From the IMG/VR virus record IMGVR_UViG_3300023084_000017, positions 1,041 to 65,040 of that record: DNA of 64,000 nt; one strand, given 5' to 3'. Positions 39,822-64,000 of the stretch are shown in pieces. Below the pieces are notes generated by a model. It was not told the origin of the DNA. It was given only the letters and a program-made list of their open reading frames with translations, and searched no databases. The stretch comes from a virus (Duplodnaviria; Caudoviricetes). The first letter of the stretch is position 1. Every line of letters begins with the position of its first letter. The position numbers were made by a program, and so were the translations under genes.

Positions 39822-40130
39822 TTAAAACTTTTCGCCTTTTTTTCTTCGTTCTCGTCTAATGGCTCTGCGTTCTCGTTCAGATTTACCACCCCATATTCCA
39901 AATCGTTCTTTTCTTACTACTGCAAATTCTAGACACTCTTCTCGAACTTTACATTCTTTACAAATTGCCTTTGCAATTACAGTACTACTACCTCTCTCTG
40001 GAAAAAACTCATCTTGGTCTGTACCAACACAGTTAGCATCTTTGTACCAATCTGGAATCTGTAGGATATCAGCAAGCGTCGCTATAAAACTCTCCCTTAT
40101 TGCTGTATATATACTAAAGACATTAACCAT
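39822..40130 (-). CDS. whiB: WhiB-family Fe-S transcription factor
   Basis: W...A.C...D...FFP.RG......K.IC..C.V...CL..A......GIWGG.SERER, with four conserved Cys. Confidence 0.95.
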   Translation of the reverse strand: MVNVFSIYTAIRESFIATLADILQIPDWYKDANCVGTDQDEFFPERGSSTVIAKAICKECKVREECLEFAVVRKERFGIWGGKSERERRAIRRERRKKGEKF

Positions 40131-43884: not shown

Positions 43885-45795
43885 ATGAAAGTATTGCAAT
43901 TGGCTGAGGCCAACGCAATTGCTGATGCACAACCCGACATCAATCATGCACCTAATTTTAGGTATGGTGATTATGACGGACTTGTGTTCCTATGTGACGT
44001 TAACGAAATCGTCACTCAAACACATATAAGTAACTGTGGTCAAACAGAATACTTGTATTCAATACTGGAACCTTATCTTCAATTATTTGATGATAAAGGT
44101 TATGACATACTTGATTGGATAGAAGAACTAGACAATCAAATGAATCAAGTAGCTAATTCCTTACACCTAAAGGACTGGGTCTTAACAAAAGAAACAGATT
44201 CTATTAACCAAGGTGTGATGATTGGTATTTACCAAATGGATACTACTGTATTCGGTGGTTATGCGAACCATGAGTGGCAAACCTACTTTACCAACAATGA
44301 TGGTAAGGTTACTAACTATGGTCGTCGTATGGCCATGGAGAAAAGTAGCAGTAGGTTCATGCCACTTCGTGACTTAGAACAGAACATTGGTGCTCGATAC
44401 ACTAAGTGTGTCATGTGTCAATGCTTCAACAAAGTCAGAACACACATGGTACCAATACGACATGCTAAGCCTGGTGCAAGGCAAGCTTGGAGCAACAGAA
44501 AGAATGTATGTATATCATGCATCAAGTATGTTGCCAAAGACCAACTTGTATCACAGAACAGACCAAATCTAAGATTGTGGCAAGGTTCAGTAGGATTCGA
44601 TGGCATAGACCAACTATTCTACAACCCTTCACGAGATGATTGGTCATGGAATGATACTTGGGGAACTGATGTATTCGAGAATGCAAATGCTGAATACAAA
44701 AGATTCTTCCGCAAGTTAGATGAAGATACCATCTTCAGAATCAGAATGATTGAACGAATTGATATTCCTAGATGGACATTTAGATTCGATACAACATTCC
44801 ACAATTGGAACTACAGGTTCCCTGTGAGATTAGTAGGAGTTAGAGAAGATGGATTGATAGAATCAGACAGTCCTGGTGGAAATTACCAAGATACTGATTG
44901 GTTCTACAACACAGGTCCTTACTATGGTATGGAGTTTGAATGCTTTGTCAGAAATGACAGAAGTGATTACAGAGATTCCAACATAGTAATGGAAGATACA
45001 ATCCGTATGTTCCACGATACTGATTATCCAAAGGCACATATGGAGTTCTATGATGGTGAGCATCAACTGTTGTACAGAAAACATGATGGTAGCTTAAGAG
45101 ATGGTATAGGAGTTGAGTTTGTATCTCAACCACTTAGCTATGACTACTGGATGAAAGAAATACCACAGAGATTCTGGGATTATTTCCAGAACAATTTCAG
45201 AGCTAGGAACTCTGAGGAATGTGGAATACACATTCATATTGGATGGGATAGTATGCAAGTTGCAGAACGTTATGTATTCCTTAAGATACTAAACGAGCTC
45301 AACAAGAAACGAAGCCCATTACTTGCAGCTATTGCAGGTAGAGATAGTACATACTATGCAACATGGAACACTCTGTTCTATCAAGGTAGTGCAGATACAG
45401 CATTCATGGTTGCAATGGAAAAGAAGCAGACAAGTCAGTCTTCTACTCCTAAGTACAATGCTATCAATACATTGCATGACAGCACTATAGAGTTGAGATA
45501 CTTTCAGGGTAATACAGGTAGAAAATCTATCTTAGGTATTGTCCAGTTTGTTGACTTAATCTACAGACATGCTGTTGATGTAATACATTCTGACACACAT
45601 AGTGAAGGTACTAGATGGGACTACTCGCAAGAAGGTCCACGTACATTCCTACAAAGTCAGTTAGACAAAATAAACAACAATGTGGATGAGTACTTACTAG
45701 ATGTACTCAGTAACTATCCGAACGACAGGATTAATTACTTAGTCCACAGATTAGAAATGGCAGACTACGAGTTGCCAGAAAACATAAACATATAA
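43885..45795 (+). CDS. Putative amidoligase (COOH-NH2 ligase, glutamine synthetase/GCS fold) with a long N-terminal region
   Basis: GMEFE..HDGSL..VEFVSQP..CGIHIH..KY.AIN..TIELRYF. Confidence 0.85.
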   Translation: MKVLQLAEANAIADAQPDINHAPNFRYGDYDGLVFLCDVNEIVTQTHISNCGQTEYLYSILEPYLQLFDDKGYDILDWIEELDNQMNQVANSLHLKDWVLTKETDSINQGVMIGIYQMDTTVFGGYANHEWQTYFTNNDGKVTNYGRRMAMEKSSSRFMPLRDLEQNIGARYTKCVMCQCFNKVRTHMVPIRHAKPGARQAWSNRKNVCISCIKYVAKDQLVSQNRPNLRLWQGSVGFDGIDQLFYNPSRDDWSWNDTWGTDVFENANAEYKRFFRKLDEDTIFRIRMIERIDIPRWTFRFDTTFHNWNYRFPVRLVGVREDGLIESDSPGGNYQDTDWFYNTGPYYGMEFECFVRNDRSDYRDSNIVMEDTIRMFHDTDYPKAHMEFYDGEHQLLYRKHDGSLRDGIGVEFVSQPLSYDYWMKEIPQRFWDYFQNNFRARNSEECGIHIHIGWDSMQVAERYVFLKILNELNKKRSPLLAAIAGRDSTYYATWNTLFYQGSADTAFMVAMEKKQTSQSSTPKYNAINTLHDSTIELRYFQGNTGRKSILGIVQFVDLIYRHAVDVIHSDTHSEGTRWDYSQEGPRTFLQSQLDKINNNVDEYLLDVLSNYPNDRINYLVHRLEMADYELPENINI

Positions 45796-45808
45796 AGAAA
45801 GGAAATAT

Positions 45809-46747
45809 ATGTGCGTAATAGCAAGCGTCCCTGCGACGAAAAACATAGATAACAATACCCTTGACCAAATGTGGAAGAGAAACCCAGATGGTGGAGGTAT
45901 TGCTTGGATAGATGAGAATGGAAAGGTTCAAGTCTACAAGACAATGAAACTCAAGAGCTTCAAGCAGAAGTTCAAAGAGGTGGTAGCTAAGTATGGTAAG
46001 TCAGACATACTTGTACACATGAGAATAGCAACTCATGGTTCTGTATGTATTGATAACAACCATCCATTCCACATCGACCCTAATACGGTCTTTGCACACA
46101 ATGGAATCATGCCTAGTGAGTTCCATCCACCTGCTAAGTCAGATATGTCTGATACAAGATACTTCAATCAAGTATTCTTGCAGAATGTCAAGCCGACTGC
46201 ATTTGATGATGAGCAGTTCAGAACAGCACTTGGAGATATCGTAGGCTTCAACAAGCTAGTGATACTCTCAGCCAACAAGAGACTGAAGAAAGAATCGTAC
46301 ATTATCAATGAGCATATGGGTTCATGGGAGAAAGGTGTTTGGTATTCCAATACACATCACAAACCATACAAGAAACCTACAAGCATAATCGGCAGCACAA
46401 CTATACAGCCAAGGTTGTTAGACACAACTGAGGATGCATGCTTCATCAATGAAGATACTGGTGACATCTGGTATGAAGATGCTCATGACATTATTTACTC
46501 AGAGTTTATACCTGAGGATATGTTAGATGATGTTGAGTTGCAGGACAAGATAACAGTAATGCTAGAAAATTCAGTGATGGATTACTACACAGTAGATGAC
46601 CTAATCATTGACTATGCATTACAGTTTGTTCCTGAGACCAAGTCATTCCAATGTGAAGAATGTGGAGCAGAGGTTGACGACAAGCTTAAGAGAGCATGTA
46701 ACAAAGAATGTGAGTGTCAATACTTACAAGAAATGACAAGGAGGTAA
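45809..46747 (+). CDS. Class II (Ntn) glutamine amidotransferase
   Basis: Cys2 nucleophile (MCVI), NPDG.G, H.RIATHG, N.HPF, HNG, SDT motifs; C-terminal Cys cluster. Confidence 0.9.
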   Translation: MCVIASVPATKNIDNNTLDQMWKRNPDGGGIAWIDENGKVQVYKTMKLKSFKQKFKEVVAKYGKSDILVHMRIATHGSVCIDNNHPFHIDPNTVFAHNGIMPSEFHPPAKSDMSDTRYFNQVFLQNVKPTAFDDEQFRTALGDIVGFNKLVILSANKRLKKESYIINEHMGSWEKGVWYSNTHHKPYKKPTSIIGSTTIQPRLLDTTEDACFINEDTGDIWYEDAHDIIYSEFIPEDMLDDVELQDKITVMLENSVMDYYTVDDLIIDYALQFVPETKSFQCEECGAEVDDKLKRACNKECECQYLQEMTRR

Positions 46748-46748
46748 C

Positions 46749-47138
46749 GTGGTAGTTCCTGACTGGAATAGAGTAGGTTCGCAAGAGCCTACTCAATCTA
46801 TTGGTAACAACGAGTCATATCCTTTATATCAGAGAGAAGAAGATGATATAGAAAATAGACGAGTAAGAATAACAACTGAACATGTAGGTAGAGTAACTTA
46901 CACAGAGAATGGTTATACAACTTATAACATGAGTGAAGTACTTGACTATGCAGTTGAAGTGGGATACTTAGGTTCCACTGACAGACTAGCTGGTAACCTA
47001 CCTTTAGATAACGTATTGAGAGAGTGGGCTCAAGAATTATTTGAAGAGAATTGGGATATTGACGATTATGAAAACTACGAAACTGGTGATGATTATGAAC
47101 AACAAGATTCATACATCGAAGACGTAGAAATTATATAA
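46749..47138 (+). CDS. Acidic PxWN-family protein 1
   Basis: Starts MVVPDWNR; GGAGG RBS; Asp/Glu/Tyr-rich. Confidence 0.7.
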   Translation: MVVPDWNRVGSQEPTQSIGNNESYPLYQREEDDIENRRVRITTEHVGRVTYTENGYTTYNMSEVLDYAVEVGYLGSTDRLAGNLPLDNVLREWAQELFEENWDIDDYENYETGDDYEQQDSYIEDVEII

Positions 47139-47152
47139 GAAAGGAGATTACA

Positions 47153-48223
47153 TTGGACGACCAACGTAAATCAGAAATCAAAAGAAAAATAACATACAAC
47201 ATGGACATGGATGTTCATGGATATGGTTACAAACCAAGCGTCTACTTTATTGGTAGAAACTTAGTGCAGTCTGCACTTGCAAGTAAGGAAGCTCAAGCAG
47301 AGCATGCATTCTTTACACTAGAAGGTCTGCCTATGGGTATGGAGTTGGAAGTTGAATACAGAAGAGATGTCTACTGTGACATTGAAGATGTAATTCATAC
47401 TATCAACAAGGAAGCTATGAGTAGAGCCTATGTAGATAGGTTCAATGAGTACGACAATGATGTTCTTACTCACCATACTGTATCACCAGTACAGTTCTTC
47501 ATAGCTAAGACTGACGGTTCACTAAGTGATGGTATTGAGTTTGTATCTCAACCAATGTCACTTGGTGTATGGAGAGACATACCATTGGTGTTCGAGGACT
47601 ACAATGATGTCTTTGCTGCATTCCACAGACGAACTACTGGATTGCACATTCATGTACCGAAAGCTGCATTTACAGATTCACATCTATTCACATGGATGTT
47701 GTTGATGCAGACACTTGGTAAAACAAGTATCAATCACAATACAACAGGCTCACTATTGTCCCTTATTGGTCAGAGAAGATTCAATAACTGGGCAAGGTTT
47801 GAACAACCAACAGTGAGTGCAGAAGTTAAATCTAAGTTAGCACAAGTTGCAATCGATAGAACGAATACTGATGGACAAAGATATAAGTATCTCAATCTAC
47901 ATCCGCAACACACAATAGAACTTAGGTTCTTCAAAGCTAACCTTAAGACAAATCGACTACTCAAGAACTTAGAGTTTGTCGATTCAACTTATGAATACAC
48001 AAAGATGCTTGACACAACTAAGGATAGTATGACAATACTAGACAGTGTGTTGAGTGCTAGTGATTGGTATGAGTACATTCAACAAGAGAAGTACTCAAAC
48101 TTAACAGAGTATCTAAGACCATACGAACACAGATTCGGTAGTCAATTAGATGCATTAGATACTAGATACGACTTGGACAATGAGTTTGACCAAGAAGTTC
48201 TAGCACATATGAAAGGAGAATAG
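47153..48223 (+). CDS. Second putative amidoligase
   Basis: GMELE..DGSL..IEFVSQP..GLHIH..RY..LN..TIELRFF. Confidence 0.85.
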   Translation: MDDQRKSEIKRKITYNMDMDVHGYGYKPSVYFIGRNLVQSALASKEAQAEHAFFTLEGLPMGMELEVEYRRDVYCDIEDVIHTINKEAMSRAYVDRFNEYDNDVLTHHTVSPVQFFIAKTDGSLSDGIEFVSQPMSLGVWRDIPLVFEDYNDVFAAFHRRTTGLHIHVPKAAFTDSHLFTWMLLMQTLGKTSINHNTTGSLLSLIGQRRFNNWARFEQPTVSAEVKSKLAQVAIDRTNTDGQRYKYLNLHPQHTIELRFFKANLKTNRLLKNLEFVDSTYEYTKMLDTTKDSMTILDSVLSASDWYEYIQQEKYSNLTEYLRPYEHRFGSQLDALDTRYDLDNEFDQEVLAHMKGE

Positions 48224-56863: not shown

Positions 56864-57947
56864 TATTTCCTCCAATATATATTTTGTAAAATTCTTCTGG
56901 ACTCTTTTGATTGTATTTATCATACGAACAGTCCCATCTGTATTTATTAATAAATGATTGTGCATTATCAAATCTGCTACCGACTTCTTTAATACAGAAC
57001 CTACAATAATCAGTGACATGTGGTCTGTGTTGTGGATAAGGTCTTACTAAGTAATAATCCCAATAATCAACAGTGGTACAGCCTTCTGTTTTACATTCTT
57101 TGTTTACAGCTAAATCAAAGTCTATAAATTTTTGTTTTCTTTTCTTGTTCGACATTTGAAATCTTTCCATACATTGTCGACAGTTAGACTGAAGACCACC
57201 ACTTTGACGTTTAGATAAATCAAAATATCTCCTATGCTTTACGACTTTACAAGCTGTACATTTTTTTTCACTAGCAATTTTTGTTGGGTCGTATTCTTCT
57301 TTTCTTTTCTCATAGTAAGCACTCACTTGTGCAATACTACATTCTTTACAAGTTCTAGAATATCCATGTCTTGTCTTTTCAGAATTATGAAAATCTGCAA
57401 CTGGCAATGTTAATTTACATCTGTAACATTTTAAAGTTTCTGGATTGTCTAATTTATGTTCTCTTATTCTTATTGCTTCATCAAACATATCAGCAACTTT
57501 TTGATTCCTAATTTTCCAATACTGAACATAGTTCTCATTGACATCAACAAAAGCAAAAATACTCTTCATAGCAACGTAAGGTTTGTTAGCCAATATGTCT
57601 GTATACTCTTTTATCTTTTCAAAGTTTGGTGACTCACCATATGTAGAAATCATTCTATCCCTACCCATGTCTGTACCAAATGTTTTTTTATACAATATTC
57701 TTACGGCCTCTCTCGTTGTTTTGAAAACATCAGCCCAAGCTTGTATTGTATAATCGGGATAGATTTCAATTAAGACTTTAAATGTATCTGCATCGGGTAA
57801 TCTCTCATGTCTCATCTTGTGAATTGGACATATCATCATCTTCTTACTTAAAGATACTGAATCATCGTGTATCATTTCACAATCAATATAAAAATATTTA
57901 TATATTTCTTTTATTTGTTCGTCGTTAAATTGAGCCATTGCGGGCAT
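56808..57947 (-). CDS. HTH plus tandem Cys4 zinc-finger protein
   Basis: TREAVR helix; repeats C..C.......F......G....C..C. Confidence 0.7.
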   Translation of the reverse strand: MPAMAQFNDEQIKEIYKYFYIDCEMIHDDSVSLSKKMMICPIHKMRHERLPDADTFKVLIEIYPDYTIQAWADVFKTTREAVRILYKKTFGTDMGRDRMISTYGESPNFEKIKEYTDILANKPYVAMKSIFAFVDVNENYVQYWKIRNQKVADMFDEAIRIREHKLDNPETLKCYRCKLTLPVADFHNSEKTRHGYSRTCKECSIAQVSAYYEKRKEEYDPTKIASEKKCTACKVVKHRRYFDLSKRQSGGLQSNCRQCMERFQMSNKKRKQKFIDFDLAVNKECKTEGCTTVDYWDYYLVRPYPQHRPHVTDYCRFCIKEVGSRFDNAQSFINKYRWDCSYDKYNQKSPEEFYKIYIGGNNEQSKRRGIFFRGLPTGS

Positions 57948-57968
57948 ATATTCCTCCTTTTTCCCCTA

Positions 57969-57998
57969 TTAGACCTTAATGTTTTCAAAAAGGTTACA
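57969..57998 (-). promoter_or_regulatory. ECF-sigma-like promoter TGTAACC-N17-GTCTAA
   Basis: Reverse-strand copy followed by TAGGGGAA and AAAGGAG. Confidence 0.7.
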
Positions 57999-58104
57999 TA
58001 ATAATTTTATGTACTTGTATAGATTAAACTGTATACCCCACCTTGTCAAGGATTTAAATTAAAAACCTTTCTTTTTTCTGTATGAGTATTAAAATAAGTA
58101 TGAG

Positions 58105-58338
58105 ATGAGAGAACAACTTAATACTCTAAATGAAAGCTTTAGCTTTTACTTTAGTGACCACAGGGTTGATGTAGAACCTAGCGTTGATGGTGTGCTTTAC
58201 AATGCACACATCTACAGAGTTATGGGTGGTAATGATTACCCTCTTGACTTTGCTTACGTTGAGACAATTACATCAATAGCAATTGAGGAAGCTGGAGAAA
58301 AAGCTAGGCAATATATATTAAATAAATTAACTGTGTAA
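58105..58338 (+). CDS. Hypothetical protein
   Basis: First ORF of the rightward block. Confidence 0.55.
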   Translation: MREQLNTLNESFSFYFSDHRVDVEPSVDGVLYNAHIYRVMGGNDYPLDFAYVETITSIAIEEAGEKARQYILNKLTV

Positions 58339-58363
58339 CCTTTTGTTTACTTAGTTGGTCTAA
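58334..58363 (+). promoter_or_regulatory. ECF-sigma-like promoter TGTAACC-N17-GTCTAA
   Basis: Motif copy upstream of the transglycosylase gene. Confidence 0.7.
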
Positions 58364-58391
58364 GTAGCAAAAGAACAGAAGGAGATTTATT

Positions 58392-58937
58392 TTGATTGCA
58401 GAATGTATGCTATTTTTAGCATTGAGTACTGTACCTTCAGTTGGGCAGGAAACACAATTTATAAACACTCACATGGAATGTCGTGATGAAATTCCAAATT
58501 CTATGACACAATATTCCGACTTATACTTAGAACATTTTGACTTTGATAATATAGACACAGCTGTACGTATAGGTTGGTGTGAATCAAGAGGTAAATCAAA
58601 CGCATATAGGACTGACAATAAAGATACTGGTGTTATGCAATTCGTGCCTTGGACATGGAACTGGGTTGCAGAAACCTACGACCTACCAATGTGGGACGAG
58701 TGGATAATACTTCGTTGGGGTAGACCTTATGATTTTAAAGGTAAGACATATCGTACTAATATAGGTTTTGAACAAATAAGAGTTCAGTACTCTCCGTACT
58801 ACAATATATTGTTTGCTTCAATTTTAGCAGAAGATATTTATGGTAGAACACAATGGAAAGATTGGAACTCTAGTAAATGGTGTTGGGAAGATGTAGATAA
58901 GTGGGAAAGAAAATGGAAAGCAGAGATATCACAATAG
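58392..58937 (+). CDS. Lytic transglycosylase (SLT/Rpf-like) with a hydrophobic N-terminus
   Basis: AVRIGWCES.G...A......G.MQF...TW catalytic motif; late W..W. Confidence 0.75.
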   Translation: MIAECMLFLALSTVPSVGQETQFINTHMECRDEIPNSMTQYSDLYLEHFDFDNIDTAVRIGWCESRGKSNAYRTDNKDTGVMQFVPWTWNWVAETYDLPMWDEWIILRWGRPYDFKGKTYRTNIGFEQIRVQYSPYYNILFASILAEDIYGRTQWKDWNSSKWCWEDVDKWERKWKAEISQ

Positions 58938-59082
58938 TATTTTGTCGTGTTTGTAAAAACGAATTAGTACCAAGTGATGTAACAACTATTTGTGATGGCT
59001 GTCTATTTAGTTTAGGTGATAGGGAAAATGGAAGAAGATAAATCTTATTACGATGATGACTATGGGTTTGATGATTTAGACT

Positions 59083-59388
59083 ATGAACTATAGACCATTA
59101 CCAGACGAAGTAAGTATAAAGAAATCTAACATAGAAGGCTTAGGTTTGTTTAGTACTTGCGCAATAAAAGAAGGTAAGAACTTAGGTATGACTCACTATA
59201 AAGCACCAGAACTAGAGAATGGTTTATGTAGAACACCACTAGGTGGTTTTATAAATCACAGTGACACACCTAATTGTGAGTTGATAGGAATAGGAAAAGG
59301 TAAGTATTTAATTACATTAAAAGATATAATGCCAGACGAAGAGATAACTCTTGAATACACAATGTATAAAGTTGATAAGGTATTATAG
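59083..59388 (+). CDS. SET-domain protein (putative lysine methyltransferase)
   Basis: S.I.G.GLF..I..G..FINHS..PNC..DI...EEIT..Y. Confidence 0.9.
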   Translation: MNYRPLPDEVSIKKSNIEGLGLFSTCAIKEGKNLGMTHYKAPELENGLCRTPLGGFINHSDTPNCELIGIGKGKYLITLKDIMPDEEITLEYTMYKVDKVL

Positions 59389-59391
59389 GAT

Positions 59392-59802
59392 ATGGACAAA
59401 AACAATTCATTCGACGGAATATTTTTTGAGATGATGAAAGAAGCAATTAAACAGGCTTCTTTTGAAATGTTTGCTGAATCCCAACAATCATTTGATGTAT
59501 CTCAACAAGAAATGGAGAAACAACTTAACGCAATTATACAAGAAGTTGATGAACCAAAATCATTAACTATAGAAAGAATGCAAGAAATTGTTGAAGACTA
59601 TAGAGAGATGGGTGAGTTCGCAAGTGTAATGGATGGTATTGGTTATTTTAAAAAACCAAAAGATGTCATTGACTTGCTACTAAAACCAGAGATGTACAGA
59701 CAACAATACTTTCTTTGGGTTGAATTAGGTAGACCAAAGAAGAAGGATGAGATGTACGAAAAATTTGGCCAAGCAGTTTGGTCAAGAGAAAGTAAAGAGT
59801 GA
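59392..59802 (+). CDS. Hypothetical protein
   Basis: 136-aa co-oriented ORF. Confidence 0.6.
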   Translation: MDKNNSFDGIFFEMMKEAIKQASFEMFAESQQSFDVSQQEMEKQLNAIIQEVDEPKSLTIERMQEIVEDYREMGEFASVMDGIGYFKKPKDVIDLLLKPEMYRQQYFLWVELGRPKKKDEMYEKFGQAVWSRESKE

Positions 59803-59858
59803 TTTGCAATTTTAAATTCAATTCACTAGGGTAACAATGTTAGACAAGGAGGAATAAA

Positions 59859-60749
59859 ATGGCTTGGATAAAGTCAGAACAAGCATTAGCAACACACCCT
59901 AAGTTGTTACTGCTTTCAAAAGATTTAGGGGTATCAGTACCATCAACAGTAGGACACCTTCATTTATTATGGTGGTGGGCTTTAGATTATTGTCAAGATG
60001 GAGTTCTTACAAAGTATAGAGACTTCATTCCTTTGGCCGCACAATGGGAAGGTGATAAAGAACTTTTCATTGATAGTCTTATAAAGCATGGTTGGTTAGA
60101 CTTAATAAATTTAGCAGAGGGTTCTGATAAAGAAGATTTAGTCATACACGACTGGATGGATTACACAGGCAATTTAATTATTGTAAGAGAAAAAGATAGA
60201 GAGCGTAAGAGAAAAGCTAGAACATCTAAGAACTCTAAGAATTCTAATAACAAAGATGACTGGGAAGTATCTGAATCGCTTAATAAATCTACTAAGCCTG
60301 TCCAGAGGACGTCCGTCGGACATCCAGAGGACGTCCAGACACCGTCCGCCGTGAGAGGAGAAGAGAGGAGAGGAGATGAGAGTAGAGGAGAAGAGATTAT
60401 ATTAGCTTCTAACGAAGCAGAAATAATAGAACCAACTTCAATAAGAACAGTATTTAGTGCATTGTGTAATGCATTTGGGTATAACTCATCAGATTTAACT
60501 CAATCTTCTAGGGGTATGTTGAATAAAGTAGCTAAAGAATTATCAGAAGTAGGTGCAACTGCGTGGGATATAGAGCAAAGAATGAAGAATTATGCTTTGA
60601 CTTACGGTAAGAAACCTACACCAACTGCTTTAGCTAAGCATTGGACTGATATGATTCAAGCAAATCCACAGATAGATAGTAGAACTCTTAGCAAGTTGCA
60701 ATCAAGTGCTATAAGTAAAAGCAATCTACAAAAGTGGGCAGAAAATTAA
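59859..60749 (+). CDS. Replication initiator / replisome organizer
   Basis: MAWIK.......HPK...L......VG.L..LW.W..L...GWL..IHDW..Y; internal iterons. Confidence 0.75.
   Translation: MAWIKSEQALATHPKLLLLSKDLGVSVPSTVGHLHLLWWWALDYCQDGVLTKYRDFIPLAAQWEGDKELFIDSLIKHGWLDLINLAEGSDKEDLVIHDWMDYTGNLIIVREKDRERKRKARTSKNSKNSNNKDDWEVSESLNKSTKPVQRTSVGHPEDVQTPSAVRGEERRGDESRGEEIILASNEAEIIEPTSIRTVFSALCNAFGYNSSDLTQSSRGMLNKVAKELSEVGATAWDIEQRMKNYALTYGKKPTPTALAKHWTDMIQANPQIDSRTLSKLQSSAISKSNLQKWAEN
60299..60396. repeat. Five 11-bp GC-rich iterons plus a purine tract (putative origin)
   Basis: TGTCCAGAGGA/CGTCCGTCGGA/CATCCAGAGGA/CGTCCAGACAC/CGTCCGCCGTG, then GAGAGGAGAAGAGAGG... Confidence 0.7.
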
Positions 60750-60756
60750 AATAACC

Positions 60757-60786
60757 TGTAACTAATTGTAAACACAGGTTGTCTAA
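60757..60786 (+). promoter_or_regulatory. ECF-sigma-like promoter TGTAACT-N17-GTCTAA
   Basis: Motif copy upstream of the Sak-like gene. Confidence 0.65.
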
Positions 60787-60805
60787 GTAACTATAGGAGG
60801 AAATT

Positions 60806-61258
60806 ATGGAACAATTATTTGAACTCTCGAGAACATTTCCCGAGAAGTTTATTCACAAAAACCCTACAGGGTTTGGAGATTACATACAGCATTCAGTAAT
60901 TAGACAAAGATTATTAAGTGTTGTAGGGCCTTATTCGCAGGAAGTAAAACACATCATTCGTGAGACACTTACTGATAAGCAAGGTAAAGATAAAGAAGTT
61001 ATTACAGGCGTAGTGCTTGCATTAACTGTAGAAATTGATGGAGAGGTTGTAACTGTTGAGGAAGCAGGAGATGTAGAACAACCATTTAACTGGAAGACTG
61101 ATGGTGCTCGTATGAAAGATGCAATATCAGATGCAGTTAAAAGATGTGCAATGGCTATGGGTGTAGGTCTACATTTATGGGCTCAGTTTGATGGGCAATC
61201 AGAATACTTTCTTGATAAACAATTAGAGAAAGGTATCGAAGATGGAAAATCAAATTGA
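60806..61258 (+). CDS. Rad52/Sak-like single-strand annealing protein
   Basis: YI....I..RL..V.G..K.A.SDA.KRCA...GVG..L. Confidence 0.8.
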   Translation: MEQLFELSRTFPEKFIHKNPTGFGDYIQHSVIRQRLLSVVGPYSQEVKHIIRETLTDKQGKDKEVITGVVLALTVEIDGEVVTVEEAGDVEQPFNWKTDGARMKDAISDAVKRCAMAMGVGLHLWAQFDGQSEYFLDKQLEKGIEDGKSN

Positions 61259-61472
61259 GGAAGTTGAACAAATATTAATTGATACTTTAGATACATTAGT
61301 CACGACTTATAAAGGTACAGGACTTTACGCAGATGACGATGTAAGAATTGACATTGCCATGAAAGTTGTAAAGATACTTGAAGGCCTTAATAATTTAGAG
61401 ATGATGTATGGAATGAAGTTCGAGTTTGACATGGATATGTTAGATGAGGAAGGGGAAAGCGAAGATGAGTAA
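61242..61472 (+). CDS. Hypothetical protein
   Basis: Overlapping co-oriented ORF. Confidence 0.55.
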   Translation: MENQIEEVEQILIDTLDTLVTTYKGTGLYADDDVRIDIAMKVVKILEGLNNLEMMYGMKFEFDMDMLDEEGESEDE

Positions 61473-61648
61473 TACAAATTTGTATCCAACCAATGGGTTC
61501 GTGATACAAGACAGAGAAGGGTTTAGAACTTTTCAATATGAAGAGACTGTAAAGATTCTTAAAAAGAAAAACAGTCCTAAGTTAAAAGACCAAGAGTATA
61601 TGAAAAGACTGAAGTTAAATATTTACGGTCAGAATTGGAAAGGTTAAT

Positions 61649-61849
61649 ATGCCTACTCAATATTTAAGTGGTAGTAAAACTAAATATGCTACTCGTAAAA
61701 GTAAGCAATATGAAAAAGGTAGGGTATGTAGCAATGTTAATTGTGATGTGACATTGTCTTTGTACAACCACAGAACAGAATGTTTTAATCACTACGGGTT
61801 TAAGCAACCAAGAGTTCGTGGTAGACAACACCCAAGTCAAAAGAAATAA
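61649..61849 (+). CDS. Small Cys/His zinc-binding protein
   Basis: R.C....C...LS.YN....C..H. Confidence 0.6.
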   Translation: MPTQYLSGSKTKYATRKSKQYEKGRVCSNVNCDVTLSLYNHRTECFNHYGFKQPRVRGRQHPSQKK

Positions 61850-61940
61850 GGAGAGTTATGGACGACAAAAAAATTGCGGAAGAAGAAGGTGTTTACATCT
61901 ATGAAACAGAAGACCCAAAGCAGAAATTTAATGAATTGTC

Positions 61941-61970
61941 TGTAACCTTTTACTTCCCAATAGGGTCTAA
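61941..61970 (+). promoter_or_regulatory. ECF-sigma-like promoter TGTAACC-N17-GTCTAA, inside ORF 61858..62070
   Basis: Exact motif and spacing. Confidence 0.6.
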
Positions 61971-62177
61971 GTTACAAGGAGCTATAGGAAAAGTATTGGG
62001 AGAGTTAGTTAACTGTACTGATATCGAATATTCTATAGACATGTGGACGAAAGTTGAGGAAAATGAATAGAGCTGAAAGAAGAGCTAACAAGTCTAAAAA
62101 AGGCGGGAAATATATAGGCCTTAATAAAAATAGACAGACACAAGTTGGAAGACTAAAAAAATATTAGAGGAGGAATA

Positions 62178-62795
62178 ATGCCTAACTGGGTAGATAATAA
62201 GTTAACAATTGAAGCAGATAAACAAACAATAGATAATATTTTCAATAAGATTAAATCACAACAGTTAAATGATTCTAAAGTTTATCAAATAGCTTTGGGT
62301 TTATATCCAATGCCTAATGATATTACTTATGTCATGGGTACTGGTGGCAGTGAACAATATGCAGTATTGCAAGATAAAATTGTAAGGCCACCATCAGTTA
62401 CTAACCTTGTTGATAAAAATTATGATGAAAGATTAGAATTTGTAGACCTTACAGAAGTTCAGAAAAGAGATTTGAATGAAAAACATGGTGCTACTAATTG
62501 GTATGACTGGAATGTAAAAAACTATGGAACTAAGTGGGGTGACTGTAGAACAGAGTTGATTAATCACGAAGAGTCTAAATTGGAATTTGTGTTTGAATCC
62601 CCATGGAGTCATAGTGCGGTGTTAGCACAAAGAATATCAGAAGATTATAAAGCATCAGTGGAACTTAAGCATTACTCAATAGAGAATTGGGAGAAGGGTA
62701 TGTTCTTATTTGAAGAAGGTACTTTACATAAGTCTGAGTATGAATTACTTGGAGACCCCGATGAAGTATTAGTACCAGTGAGTGAAGAAGAGTAA
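62178..62795 (+). CDS. YubB/Api92-like ferredoxin-fold protein (DUF1281-like)
   Basis: MPNW..N.L...WYDW....YGTKW...F...WS. Confidence 0.75.
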   Translation: MPNWVDNKLTIEADKQTIDNIFNKIKSQQLNDSKVYQIALGLYPMPNDITYVMGTGGSEQYAVLQDKIVRPPSVTNLVDKNYDERLEFVDLTEVQKRDLNEKHGATNWYDWNVKNYGTKWGDCRTELINHEESKLEFVFESPWSHSAVLAQRISEDYKASVELKHYSIENWEKGMFLFEEGTLHKSEYELLGDPDEVLVPVSEEE

Positions 62796-62840
62796 TACAG
62801 ATGATGGGTAAAGTTTCTAGTAGAATAGTAGGTAGCTTTA

Positions 62841-62898
62841 GGGCGGTATGTTTCGCCACGGGGTTCGCCTCCTTTCCTCGGGGAATTTTATACCGCCC
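62841..62898 (+). ncRNA. Hairpin RNA displaying anti-SD CCUCCUUU in its apical loop
   Basis: GGGCGGTAT/ATACCGCCC stem, inner CGGGG/CCTCG, loop TTCGCCTCCTTT. Confidence 0.5.
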
Positions 62899-62911
62899 AT
62901 CTTTATTTTTA

Positions 62912-62990
62912 GGGGGTGACAGGGATAGACTTATTGTTTTGCGGGACAGCGTTACAAGAAGTAACTGGGGTTCAATTCCCCACACCTCCA
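62912..62990 (+). ncRNA. tmRNA-like tRNA(Ala)-mimic domain lacking the mRNA-like domain
   Basis: Acceptor stem GGGGGTG/CACCTCC-A with G3.U70; stemless D-loop ending GAC; T-arm TGGGG-TTCAATT-CCCCA. Confidence 0.65.
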
Positions 62991-63030
62991 CTAATATCAC
63001 GCGAGTGATATAATGTTTCATAAAGAAAAT

Positions 63031-63089
63031 GGGGAGGTTGAAGTTCATACAGAAGTTGTCCTCTGTGTGGTCTCCTTTCTAACCTCTCT
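63031..63089 (+). ncRNA. Hairpin RNA containing GUCUCCUUUCUA (anti-SD)
   Basis: GGGGAGGTTG/TAACCTCTCT and CATACAGA/TCTGTGTG stems; TGnTATAAT at 63006-63014. Confidence 0.45.
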
Positions 63090-63123
63090 ATCTTCCTTTG
63101 TGTAACATACAGCTATCTGTAAT

Positions 63124-63561
63124 GCAGGTAGCTTGAACTGAAAGGTGCACTCCGTTAAAAGCGGACTCTTGCGAATGCATCGTTCGGTTCAAGGTACTTG
63201 CTTATAAGAATTTGTAAGTACTTGGCTACTGAAGAATAGGGTAATACCCAACAAGTAGGTAGCTTGTAGCACATAGCAGAGTTAAAGGTCTGCAGACACT
63301 TTAAACGATTGCTAAAAACTGTTGTGTGTTACAAGCTATCTATTAGTTCAGAACCATATTGGGATTGAAGTTGTAATGACTGAAAGTTTCAAGTCAGTAT
63401 GGATTAGTAGGTAGCTTGTAGCACATAGGACAATGGGTGTTATTACACGACTTAAATGCGTGGCATTGAAATAATATGCGACCCTCTCTGATAACATCAA
63501 TGAGTGGTTATCGCTTCACTGATAACATCATTAGATGTCTTGTGTGTTACAAGCTATCTAT
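63124..63561 (+). repeat. Array of long hairpins with conserved arms and variable interiors
   Basis: Units at 63124-63201, 63255-63343 and 63407-63561; the last two share an identical 23-nt 5' arm and 22-nt 3' arm. Confidence 0.75.
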
Positions 63562-63572
63562 AAGGAGAAATA

Positions 63573-63947
63573 GTGGAAGAATTAAAACACAATTTATTTG
63601 TGTATGGAACATTAAGAGAAGGTCAATCGCGTAACAATGTGTTTCGTGATGCAGAATATATAGGTGTCAGGAAGACCAAACCTCATTACACAATGTATAG
63701 TCTTGGTGCGTTCCCTGCGTTATCAACTCTTGGTAATACAGAAATAGTTGGAGATGTATATAAAGTATCTGATTACACATTAGAATTGTGCGATATGATT
63801 GAGGGACACCCTAGTTTTTACCAGAGATTACCTATTGAATTGCAAGATGAGTCTATAGAAGAACCATTTGCATACTTTATTGTAAATAGAAATTGGTCTG
63901 GACACGCAAAGATTGATAGTGGTAATTGGGTAAAGGAACTCATATAG
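63573..63947 (+). CDS. Gamma-glutamylcyclotransferase (AIG2-like)
   Basis: LFVYGTLR.G..FPAL..I.G.VY.V....L...D..EG.P..Y.R. Confidence 0.9.
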   Translation: MEELKHNLFVYGTLREGQSRNNVFRDAEYIGVRKTKPHYTMYSLGAFPALSTLGNTEIVGDVYKVSDYTLELCDMIEGHPSFYQRLPIELQDESIEEPFAYFIVNRNWSGHAKIDSGNWVKELI

Positions 63948-64000
63948 TCCCCTTCTACCCATTACACATTCTCCTTATACCAAAAGGACAAATCATTGGT

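Follow-up and report, generated by a model that had tools for sequence, protein, structure and literature searches.

Hairpin units in which one constant stem encloses unrelated interiors form a non-coding array in the genome of an uncultured phage, and the same stem recurs around other interiors in many viral sequences of IMG/VR. These units (here called cassettes, with their interiors called cargos) are structured and conserved, covary in the stem, are biased towards one strand, are modular with replacement of the cargo, and lie co-oriented with genes and in many cases before start codons. The best explanation, which we hold with moderate confidence, is that the stem is a co-transcribed processing site at which small RNAs are released, probably through cleavage by host RNase III, and that it doubles as a homology handle for the exchange of cargo.

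The array and its shared stem

The window, by which is meant the whole stretch of 64,000 nucleotides that was analysed, covers bases 1041-65040 of an IMG/VR virus record that is 65,040 bp long, is rated complete and has 36% G+C. The array is a 777-nt non-coding region of the + strand (62796-63572), flanked by an ORF at 62178-62795 and another at 63573-63947 and holding no credible ORF of its own (Table 1). Its predicted fold has an MFE of -289.5 kcal/mol and a z-score of -11.1 relative to 20 shuffles.

Table 1. Features of the array and of its downstream border, with positions in the window
Feature	Position	Strand	Details
Possible large outer cassette	62828..63120	+	basal helix of 9-10 bp, 62828-62837 with 63111-63120
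Cassette unit 1, diverged	63124..63201	+	basal GCAGGUAGC / GGUACUUGC
Linker, units 1-2	63202..63254	+	contains ACUGAAG
Cassette unit 2	63255..63343	+	left arm 63255-63274, interior of 49 nt, right arm 63324-63343
Linker, units 2-3	63344..63406	+	small hairpin, with GACUGAAAG at end; resembles the 3' part of the linker motif of relatives
Cassette unit 3	63407..63561	+	left arm 63407-63426, structured interior of 115 nt, right arm 63542-63561
Shine-Dalgarno sequence and start codon	63562..63575	+	AAGGAG 63562-63567 and GTG start 63573 of gamma-glutamyl cyclotransferase-like gene 63573-63947

The original prediction had described units 2 and 3 as sharing identical arms that depart from perfect pairing only by G.U, and this is what is found: their common 20-bp stem, GUAGGUAGCUUGUAGCACAU / GUGUGUUACAAGCUAUCUAU, contains four G.U pairs on the + strand and zero other mismatches. 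Variable pairs lengthen the helices of both units to 26 bp each, those of unit 2 being formed by the outermost 6 nt on each side of its interior. The left arm AGTAGGTAGCTTGTAGCACATAG is present exactly at 63254-63276 and 63406-63428; these are its only two matches in the window at up to three mismatches, where 100 shuffles give an expectation of 0.00, and the right arm TTGTGTGTTACAAGCTATCTAT is present at 63322 and 63540. Unit 1, proposed as a diverged version of the others, is indeed paired at 18 of 20 positions while its left arm differs from the consensus at 7. The basal cores are confined to the array and are found neither elsewhere in the window nor in the remaining 1,040 bases of the contig. 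A structure of the + strand had been expected, and the predicted RNA folds agree, with energies of -44.0 kcal/mol for unit 2 (63250-63348, z -6.8), -65.2 kcal/mol for unit 3 (63402-63566, z -8.3) and -40.5 kcal/mol for unit 1 (63118-63206, z -7.0) compared with -27.0, -45.5 and -28.6 kcal/mol respectively for the - strand. Within unit 3 there are two copies of UGAUAACAUCA, and the repeat that had been reported from this interior, CTGATAACATCA, is confirmed at 63488-63499 and 63519-63530.

For a wider view of the stem, at least 203 distinct units with 94 arm pairs were collected by script from IMG/VR stretches and the window, and 118 of them, of 60-112 nt and with one unit per cargo prefix, were aligned. 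In the alignment 96.3% of cells are paired, and G.U outnumbers A.C in the stems by 423 to 6, the percentage paired and the excess of G.U being partly built in because variant units had entered the set only if at least 18 of 20 positions paired, G.U included. Covariation bears out the proposed pairing: changes on both sides occur in 20 of 23 pairs (255 cells), a combination of pairing and double changes that was reached by 0 of 500 shuffles, and partners slid by 1-3 columns pair at 20-47%. The set collected by left arm only is free of the pre-selection bias for pairing, and the right-arm variants listed in it are mostly C or T opposite G, or A or G opposite U. The two ends of the stem behave differently in the alignment. 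The basal 9 bp, GUAGGUAGC / GCUAUCUAU, are near-invariant, pairs 1-9 having double changes in 0-3 cells each with the exception of pair 4 (12 cells) and pairs 6-9 being practically invariant, and G.U is found at pair 1 in 95 of 118 units and at pair 5 in 88 of 118. Pairs 10-20 covary, other helices being substituted, with 4-25 double changes each. The stem is an RNA helix with a sequence-constrained base.

Upstream of unit 1 a further pair of arms had been suggested to enclose hairpins together with a small tmRNA, and on the predicted folds such an outer cassette is plausible. It would enclose a hairpin at 62841-62898 (+), the tRNA-like domain of a tmRNA-like element at 62912-62993 (+) and a second hairpin at 63013-63108 (+). 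The outer pair itself, GTAGGTAGC (62828) and GCTATCTGT (63112), exists, and with 62820-63125 folded in isolation it forms a helix of 9 bp that encloses 273 nt, but folding all 777 nt together pairs 63111-63120 with the left arm of the next unit. By itself GTAGGTAGCT, at up to one mismatch, is not enriched, with 5 occurrences in the window against 3.53 expected, four of the five being within 62828-63416. The tmRNA-like element consists of a tRNA-like domain only, with an acceptor stem, a G3.U70 pair (recognised by eye) and a T-arm and with no tag-coding part, and it scores 43.1 bits with the Rfam tmRNA model, for which the cut-off is 47. A relative in locus L049 (5415-5494, - strand) scores 52.4 bits and a similar element is present in L030. 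Enclosure of the tmRNA-like element is possible by the 9-bp helix, but in L049 the element comes after a cassette and outside it, just 5' of a Shine-Dalgarno sequence and ATG. The two hairpins of the window have C-rich loops or strands (CCUCC, CCUUUCC), and CCCCUU is seen in the linker hairpins of relatives. As these sequences complement the purine-rich Shine-Dalgarno sequences of these phages, the C-rich hairpins may be anti-Shine-Dalgarno regulators.

A second motif, RNA-like and conserved, was observed directly 5' of the cassette arm in relatives, for example in L132, L133 and L143. Its parts are, in order, AGUAAGAG, a covarying stem of 4-6 bp, a CCCUGU(U) loop, the return stem and ACUGAA(A/C). 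This pattern has 73 matches in 73 of 196 sources, one in each, with 0 on reversed sequence, and 61 of the matches run straight into the arm core; it has no Rfam gathering-score match in the 12 loci scanned. The pattern is absent from the window, though the linker between units 2 and 3 has the ending given in Table 1. Another linker pattern (TAGACCAAAAT-like) was dropped, having 35 matches against 45 on reversed sequence.

Distribution of the stem and exchange of its cargo

IMG/VR was scanned in two ways, both of which give lower bounds from an arbitrary sample with about 10 kb per related contig looked at. The first scan used the 18-mer GTAGGTAGCTTGTAGCAC as the query and found it in at least 120 stretches, in at least 148 copies. 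Among the matches listed, the right arm (at up to three substitutions) follows 48-200 nt downstream in 144 of the 148 copies, and two of the four misses end at the edge of the locus. The second scan fixed only the two 9-nt basal halves, 42-72 nt apart, and found at least 118 stretches; the next 11 positions are paired at 10 or more in 93 of the 101 distinct matches listed. Also among these matches are 58 hairpins in 52 loci that were new with respect to the first scan, and since 30 of the 58 carry the distal half of the stem in the window, the full 20-bp form appears to be dominant in nature, beyond the set selected by the 18-mer. The arms are accordingly not unique to this genome, being present in the stretches of the first scan and in at least 52 further loci, and the cargo varies between relatives, as the cassette idea had anticipated.

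Outside IMG/VR the stem has no match in 50,697 GenBank phage records, a set that may lack this genome and its close relatives, whether the blastn query was a 1001-nt piece (E 1e-5) or unit 2 by itself (E up to 10). In 185,579 prokaryotic genomes, one per species, there are four matches to the 18-mer, of which a single one, on a MAG contig of 3 kb that may be a mis-binned phage fragment, is a true cassette; the other three were taken as chance, being without the right arm. No known RNA family is assigned to the units: Rfam 15 in gathering mode matches nothing in the whole window, two miRNA models (E 2.5 and 6.1) are all that units 1-3 and the linkers match within 62700-63700 at E up to 10, and in 12 related loci (142,901 bases) the sole match in gathering mode is a tmRNA-like element outside the cassettes. 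A literature search of a limited set of papers found related concepts only and no prior description of the element. An arm of 18-23 nt is identical in loci whose neighbouring proteins share only 28-60% identity with those of the window, and therefore the stem is far better conserved than the surrounding genes.

The cargo shows a very different pattern. The interiors of the collected units fall into at least 123 unrelated clusters, 83 of them singletons; they range from 24 to 180 nt, giving unit lengths of 64-216 nt, and the spacing from one unit start to the next is irregular. Nucleotide similarity between the window and other loci is bounded exactly by the cassette borders. Locus L025 is 100% identical to 63253-63343 over 91 nt, and L042, L043 and L118 are 92-95% identical to 63406/7-63561/2, in each case with flanks that lack similarity by BLAST. 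Conversely, five loci with one gene in common have five different cargo clusters upstream of that gene, and in further groups of shared context the cargo clusters are distinct in 5 of 5, 4 of 4 and 4 of 4. Different cargos at the same site in related phages are the pattern expected under diversifying selection. Loss of a unit can also be seen, as contigs from three RNA-library runs (X15-X17) join 63253 to 63406 and so lack unit 2, the deletion spanning from one left-arm copy of the 23-nt direct repeat to the next, and other RNA-library contigs have the arms of the window around 74 other letters. Taken together, the many cargo clusters on one stem, the exact boundaries at stem ends, the swaps at orthologous sites and the deletion from arm to arm give comparative support both to the cassette idea and to the use of the arms as a recombination handle, as had been put forward originally.

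The interiors are constrained rather than junk: a nine-member cargo family retains its inner hairpin through compensatory changes and has in addition a long, almost invariant unpaired stretch, of which the ACGAAACAACUAA..GCAGACC loop is an example. In the four-member family of unit 3, variation is found in unpaired linkers only and both copies of its repeated element are kept; pairs with compensatory change number 0 among these only four sequences. Several cargos (L005, L033, L024, L064, L046 and L114) were seen to end in a tRNA T-arm-like GTAGGTTGAAYTCCTAC followed by CA and abutting the 3' strand of the stem. ARAGORN reports 0 tRNA or tmRNA genes in the window and 0 in all 120 of 120 related loci.

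Gene context and the reading of the stem

Among the proteins of the phage are an HK97-type capsid, a portal, a large terminase and a prohead protease whose closest relatives in cultured viruses belong to actinophages. A WhiB-family regulator (39822-40127, - strand; PF02467, 78 bits), of a family that among 14 control genomes matched only Corynebacterium, makes an actinobacterial host likely. WhiB was found in 0 of 195 related loci, which, at only about 10 kb each, are uninformative on hosts. The array ends a + strand block that comprises a replication initiator, a Rad52-like annealing protein and small unknown proteins; the ORF directly upstream has only a weak, sub-cut-off match to DUF1281_C (Api92-like). 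Elsewhere on the + strand, genes at 43885-48223, together with the gene that follows the array, make up a cluster of amidoligase-like, class-II glutamine amidotransferase-like and gamma-glutamyl cyclotransferase-like genes. A SET-domain protein is encoded at 59083-59385.

Units are co-oriented with their neighbours, ORFs of at least 80 aa within 1.5 kb being on the same strand in 762 cases and on the opposite strand in 283. Among 181 distinct downstream contexts, a Shine-Dalgarno sequence and ORF start follow within 60 nt (mostly at 11-29 nt) in 72 (about 40%), another arm follows within 120 nt in 73 (about 40%) and neither is found in 36. The arrays occupy non-coding gaps of about 1 kb. In the window the arms are followed by UAAGGAG or UUAGUU, and the end of the unit 3 stem (63561) is 12 nt from the GTG start codon. 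Intrinsic terminators predicted in 57900-64000 number 3 against 2.5 expected, with none at units 1-3 or at arms, where a short GC-rich hairpin with a run of U is lacking. Promoters of the sigma-70 type, the class that the scan covered, number 20 against 20.8 expected, with none at arms; those of the host may differ. Between 28 and 45% of the sampled words of the stretch are present in six metatranscriptome runs, with DNA carry-over possible. The RNA evidence consists of assembled contigs and is silent on starts, ends and strand. Contigs with the cassettes of relatives have depths of 70-485 in RNA libraries compared with 2-8 for coding parts of the window, values that come from different genomes and so do not rank abundance; stretches left uncovered in these runs carry no weight either.

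From this context we infer cleavage of the stem, the enzyme responsible, release of the cargo and action of the cargos in trans. The 777-nt stretch would be transcribed together with the early and recombination genes of the + strand as one transcript, in which each unit would fold as a perfect helix of 20-26 bp topped by an unrelated small structured RNA. This helix would most likely be a double-strand processing site. The enzyme is probably host RNase III, proposed because the phage encodes none: Pfam RNase III families have 0 matches in the complete 65-kb genome, and 8 of 14 control genomes match. The standard substrate of bacterial RNase III is perfect dsRNA of about two helical turns, and the cassettes have the features of an RNase III-type substrate in the length of their helices, in deviations that are G.U only and in their co-orientation with ORFs. 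Once cut, the polycistronic transcript would yield the cargo hairpins as separate small RNAs, for which antitoxin mimics and protein sponges had been suggested originally as candidate roles, and would be trimmed just 5' of the ribosome-binding site that comes next. As DNA, the identical arms would provide about 20-25 nt of portable homology, through which cargos could be exchanged, gained or lost by homologous recombination between co-infecting relatives; the putative annealing protein is encoded beside the array.

Bacterial RNase III reads sequence only weakly. For this reason the enzyme alone cannot account for a near-invariant base of 9 bp with two G.U pairs, and since that invariance is left unexplained, the chief rival is a dedicated reader of the base. 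The handle formed by the basal helix would then be recognised for its sequence by a dedicated RNA-binding protein or endonuclease, of the phage or the host, and not by RNase III, which we judge rather unlikely. That such a factor would bind, cut, load or protect any cargo, with the stem as the common scaffold of a library of effector RNAs, is likewise improbable, if well short of negligible. The combination of invariance at pairs 6-9, frequent G.U at pairs 1 and 5 and freedom to covary at pairs 10-20 is easier to reconcile with recognition of sequence and wobble geometry than with a general dsRNA nuclease, and the identity of the stem across phages with diverged proteins is also in its favour. 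No candidate for such a protein was found, however, among the commonest neighbour families in about 10 kb per related contig. These are metallophosphoesterase, Rad52-like and AAA_5 ATPase families and unknowns, most of them absent from the window, and clustering over at least 120 loci and part of the window, with Pfam applied to the 10 most widespread families, gave no co-occurring RNA-binding protein. The window offers little more, the best 25 of 31 Pfam families matched by its 80 ORFs including no known RNA-binding or RNA-cutting domain save two RNase_T-type exonucleases.

A more far-reaching version can be offered tentatively, namely that this is a possible unrecognised RNA cassette system of uncultured phages in which an invariant G.U-bearing base, read by a dedicated factor, acts as a universal plug for effector RNAs. 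It is conceivable, though doubtful, that the repertoire of such a system would be large and quickly exchanged, serving host takeover or counter-defence as an RNA-level analogue of the integron with arms-race diversity. The repertoire might also, and this is put forward with similar reserve, include the tRNA T-arm-like modules, the anti-Shine-Dalgarno hairpins and many unknowns.

Two other readings fit the data less well. The hairpins may be purely cis-acting 5'-UTR or intercistronic elements, stabilising mRNA or insulating or enhancing translation, with an interior that is merely tolerated. The position of the stem end, at 11-60 nt before a start led by a Shine-Dalgarno sequence in those 72 contexts and close to such a start at unit 3, is what would be expected of such elements, and the ESAS inverted repeats of Cluster K mycobacteriophages are also placed just upstream of gene starts (PMC3203893). 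We nevertheless consider this reading quite improbable, given that the 73 units followed by another arm precede a unit and not a gene, that arrays fill gaps of the size noted above, that the same gene is found with five unrelated cargos, that cargos are 92-100% conserved between genomes without flanking similarity and that they hold invariant unpaired stretches and covarying inner helices. Integron attC sites have a conserved base and a variable top. That architecture, the sharing of exact boundaries across unrelated contexts and the arm-to-arm deletion recall a DNA-level element, whether a MITE-like or attC-like mobile inverted repeat or a single-stranded DNA hairpin of replication or recombination with incidental RNA folding, but this is very unlikely, as not one direct repeat of 5 or 6 nt is present at the 203 borders, where shuffled sequence gives means of 2.9 and 0.6, the complete genome is without tyrosine integrase or reverse transcriptase, the arms differ systematically so that on the transcribed strand each mismatch becomes G.U, units share the orientation of neighbouring genes and the element is absent from prokaryotic genomes with the exception of the one MAG contig.

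Relation to known elements and significance

The closest counterpart to the mechanism proposed here is found in the Correia elements (CREE or nemis) of Neisseria, which are short intergenic inverted repeats co-transcribed with neighbouring genes. CREE are chromosomal MITE-like repeats with a TA duplication. Their terminal repeats pair as an RNA hairpin that binds RNase III and is either cleaved or protected by it; their core is conserved, and they bind IHF and are able to create promoters (PMC2649163). The cassettes differ from CREE in having at least 123 unrelated interiors, no target duplication and a strand asymmetry due to G.U, and in being found in phages only. A MITE-like or Correia-like transposable element was rejected on the grounds that there is no target-site duplication and that border repeats of 3 or 4 nt are at chance level. 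The RNase III hairpins of the T7 early genes are of about 50-60 nt with an internal loop and are usually cut once, by the host enzyme. Like the cassettes they are part of a polycistronic phage transcript, are co-oriented with genes and are often just 5' of a ribosome-binding site; unlike the cassettes they are not known to carry variable cargo or to be conserved in sequence across distant phages.

With respect to evolutionary role the closest elements are the PeSLs of T4-like phages, which are small conserved intergenic motifs among early genes and points of homologous exchange (PMC4122927; PMC2839356). In both systems a repeated motif acts as the exchange point between otherwise unrelated sequences. 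PeSLs are composites of terminator and promoter flanking shuffled genes, whereas in the cassettes it is the interior of the hairpin itself that is exchanged. In position and host group the closest elements are the ESAS of Cluster K mycobacteriophages, imperfect inverted repeats of about 17-20 bp, in one orientation and immediately 5' of translation starts, with spacers of mostly 4-13 bp and tied to the 13-bp SAS GGGATAGGAGCCC at the start codon (PMC3203893). ESAS differ from the cassettes in forming no arrays, having no cargo and being unrelated in sequence. A SAS-like 13-mer is absent downstream of the arms, where varied Shine-Dalgarno sequences are found instead.

The processing stalks of rRNA operons and the clusters of pri-miRNAs are cases in which a long helix closes a functional RNA and an enzyme of the RNase III class releases it. 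Tandem units are possible in these as in the cassettes, the likeness being an analogy of mechanism with no homology, and for the cassettes release would be by inference. TIGR arrays are likewise phage-borne tandem RNA units, some of them stem-loop, and their units are of about 36 nt with repeats or palindromes of 8-12 nt, two spacers of about 9 nt, box C/D-like motifs and an adjoining Nop-domain protein (PMC12045711). TIGR-Tas was rejected here, as PF01798 has 0 matches in the genome and the cassettes have a constant 20-bp stem with interiors of 24-180 nt. Integron attC sites were set aside since PF00589 has 0 matches in the complete genome, where 14 of 14 controls match, and since the variable part is inside the hairpin and not between hairpins. 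A retron msr-msd is excluded by 0 matches to PF00078 in the genome. The original prediction had held that the array is neither CRISPR nor a set of terminators, and so it proves: the repeats are inverted pairs with irregular spacing and variable unit length, no Cas protein is among the best 25 of 31 Pfam families, and no terminator-like site was found at the units.

The element belongs neither to the Correia elements nor to ESAS, and probably not to the PeSLs, given that terminators and sigma-70-type promoters are lacking at its units. Co-transcribed inverted-repeat hairpins that are processed and that promote shuffling are known already. What is new is the invariant, wobble-bearing base, the more than 120 unrelated cargos and the replacement of cargo at fixed sites. 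If the stem is a processing site that also serves for cargo exchange, widespread environmental phages would package many small RNAs on one exchangeable stem, and the units would already list more than 120 candidate small RNAs of phages, with boundaries set by that stem. They would be a natural case of modular RNA shuffling between genomes, and the stem would be a compact processing scaffold reusable for the expression of arbitrary small RNAs. The roles of phage non-coding RNAs, and the speed of their turnover, thereby become testable.
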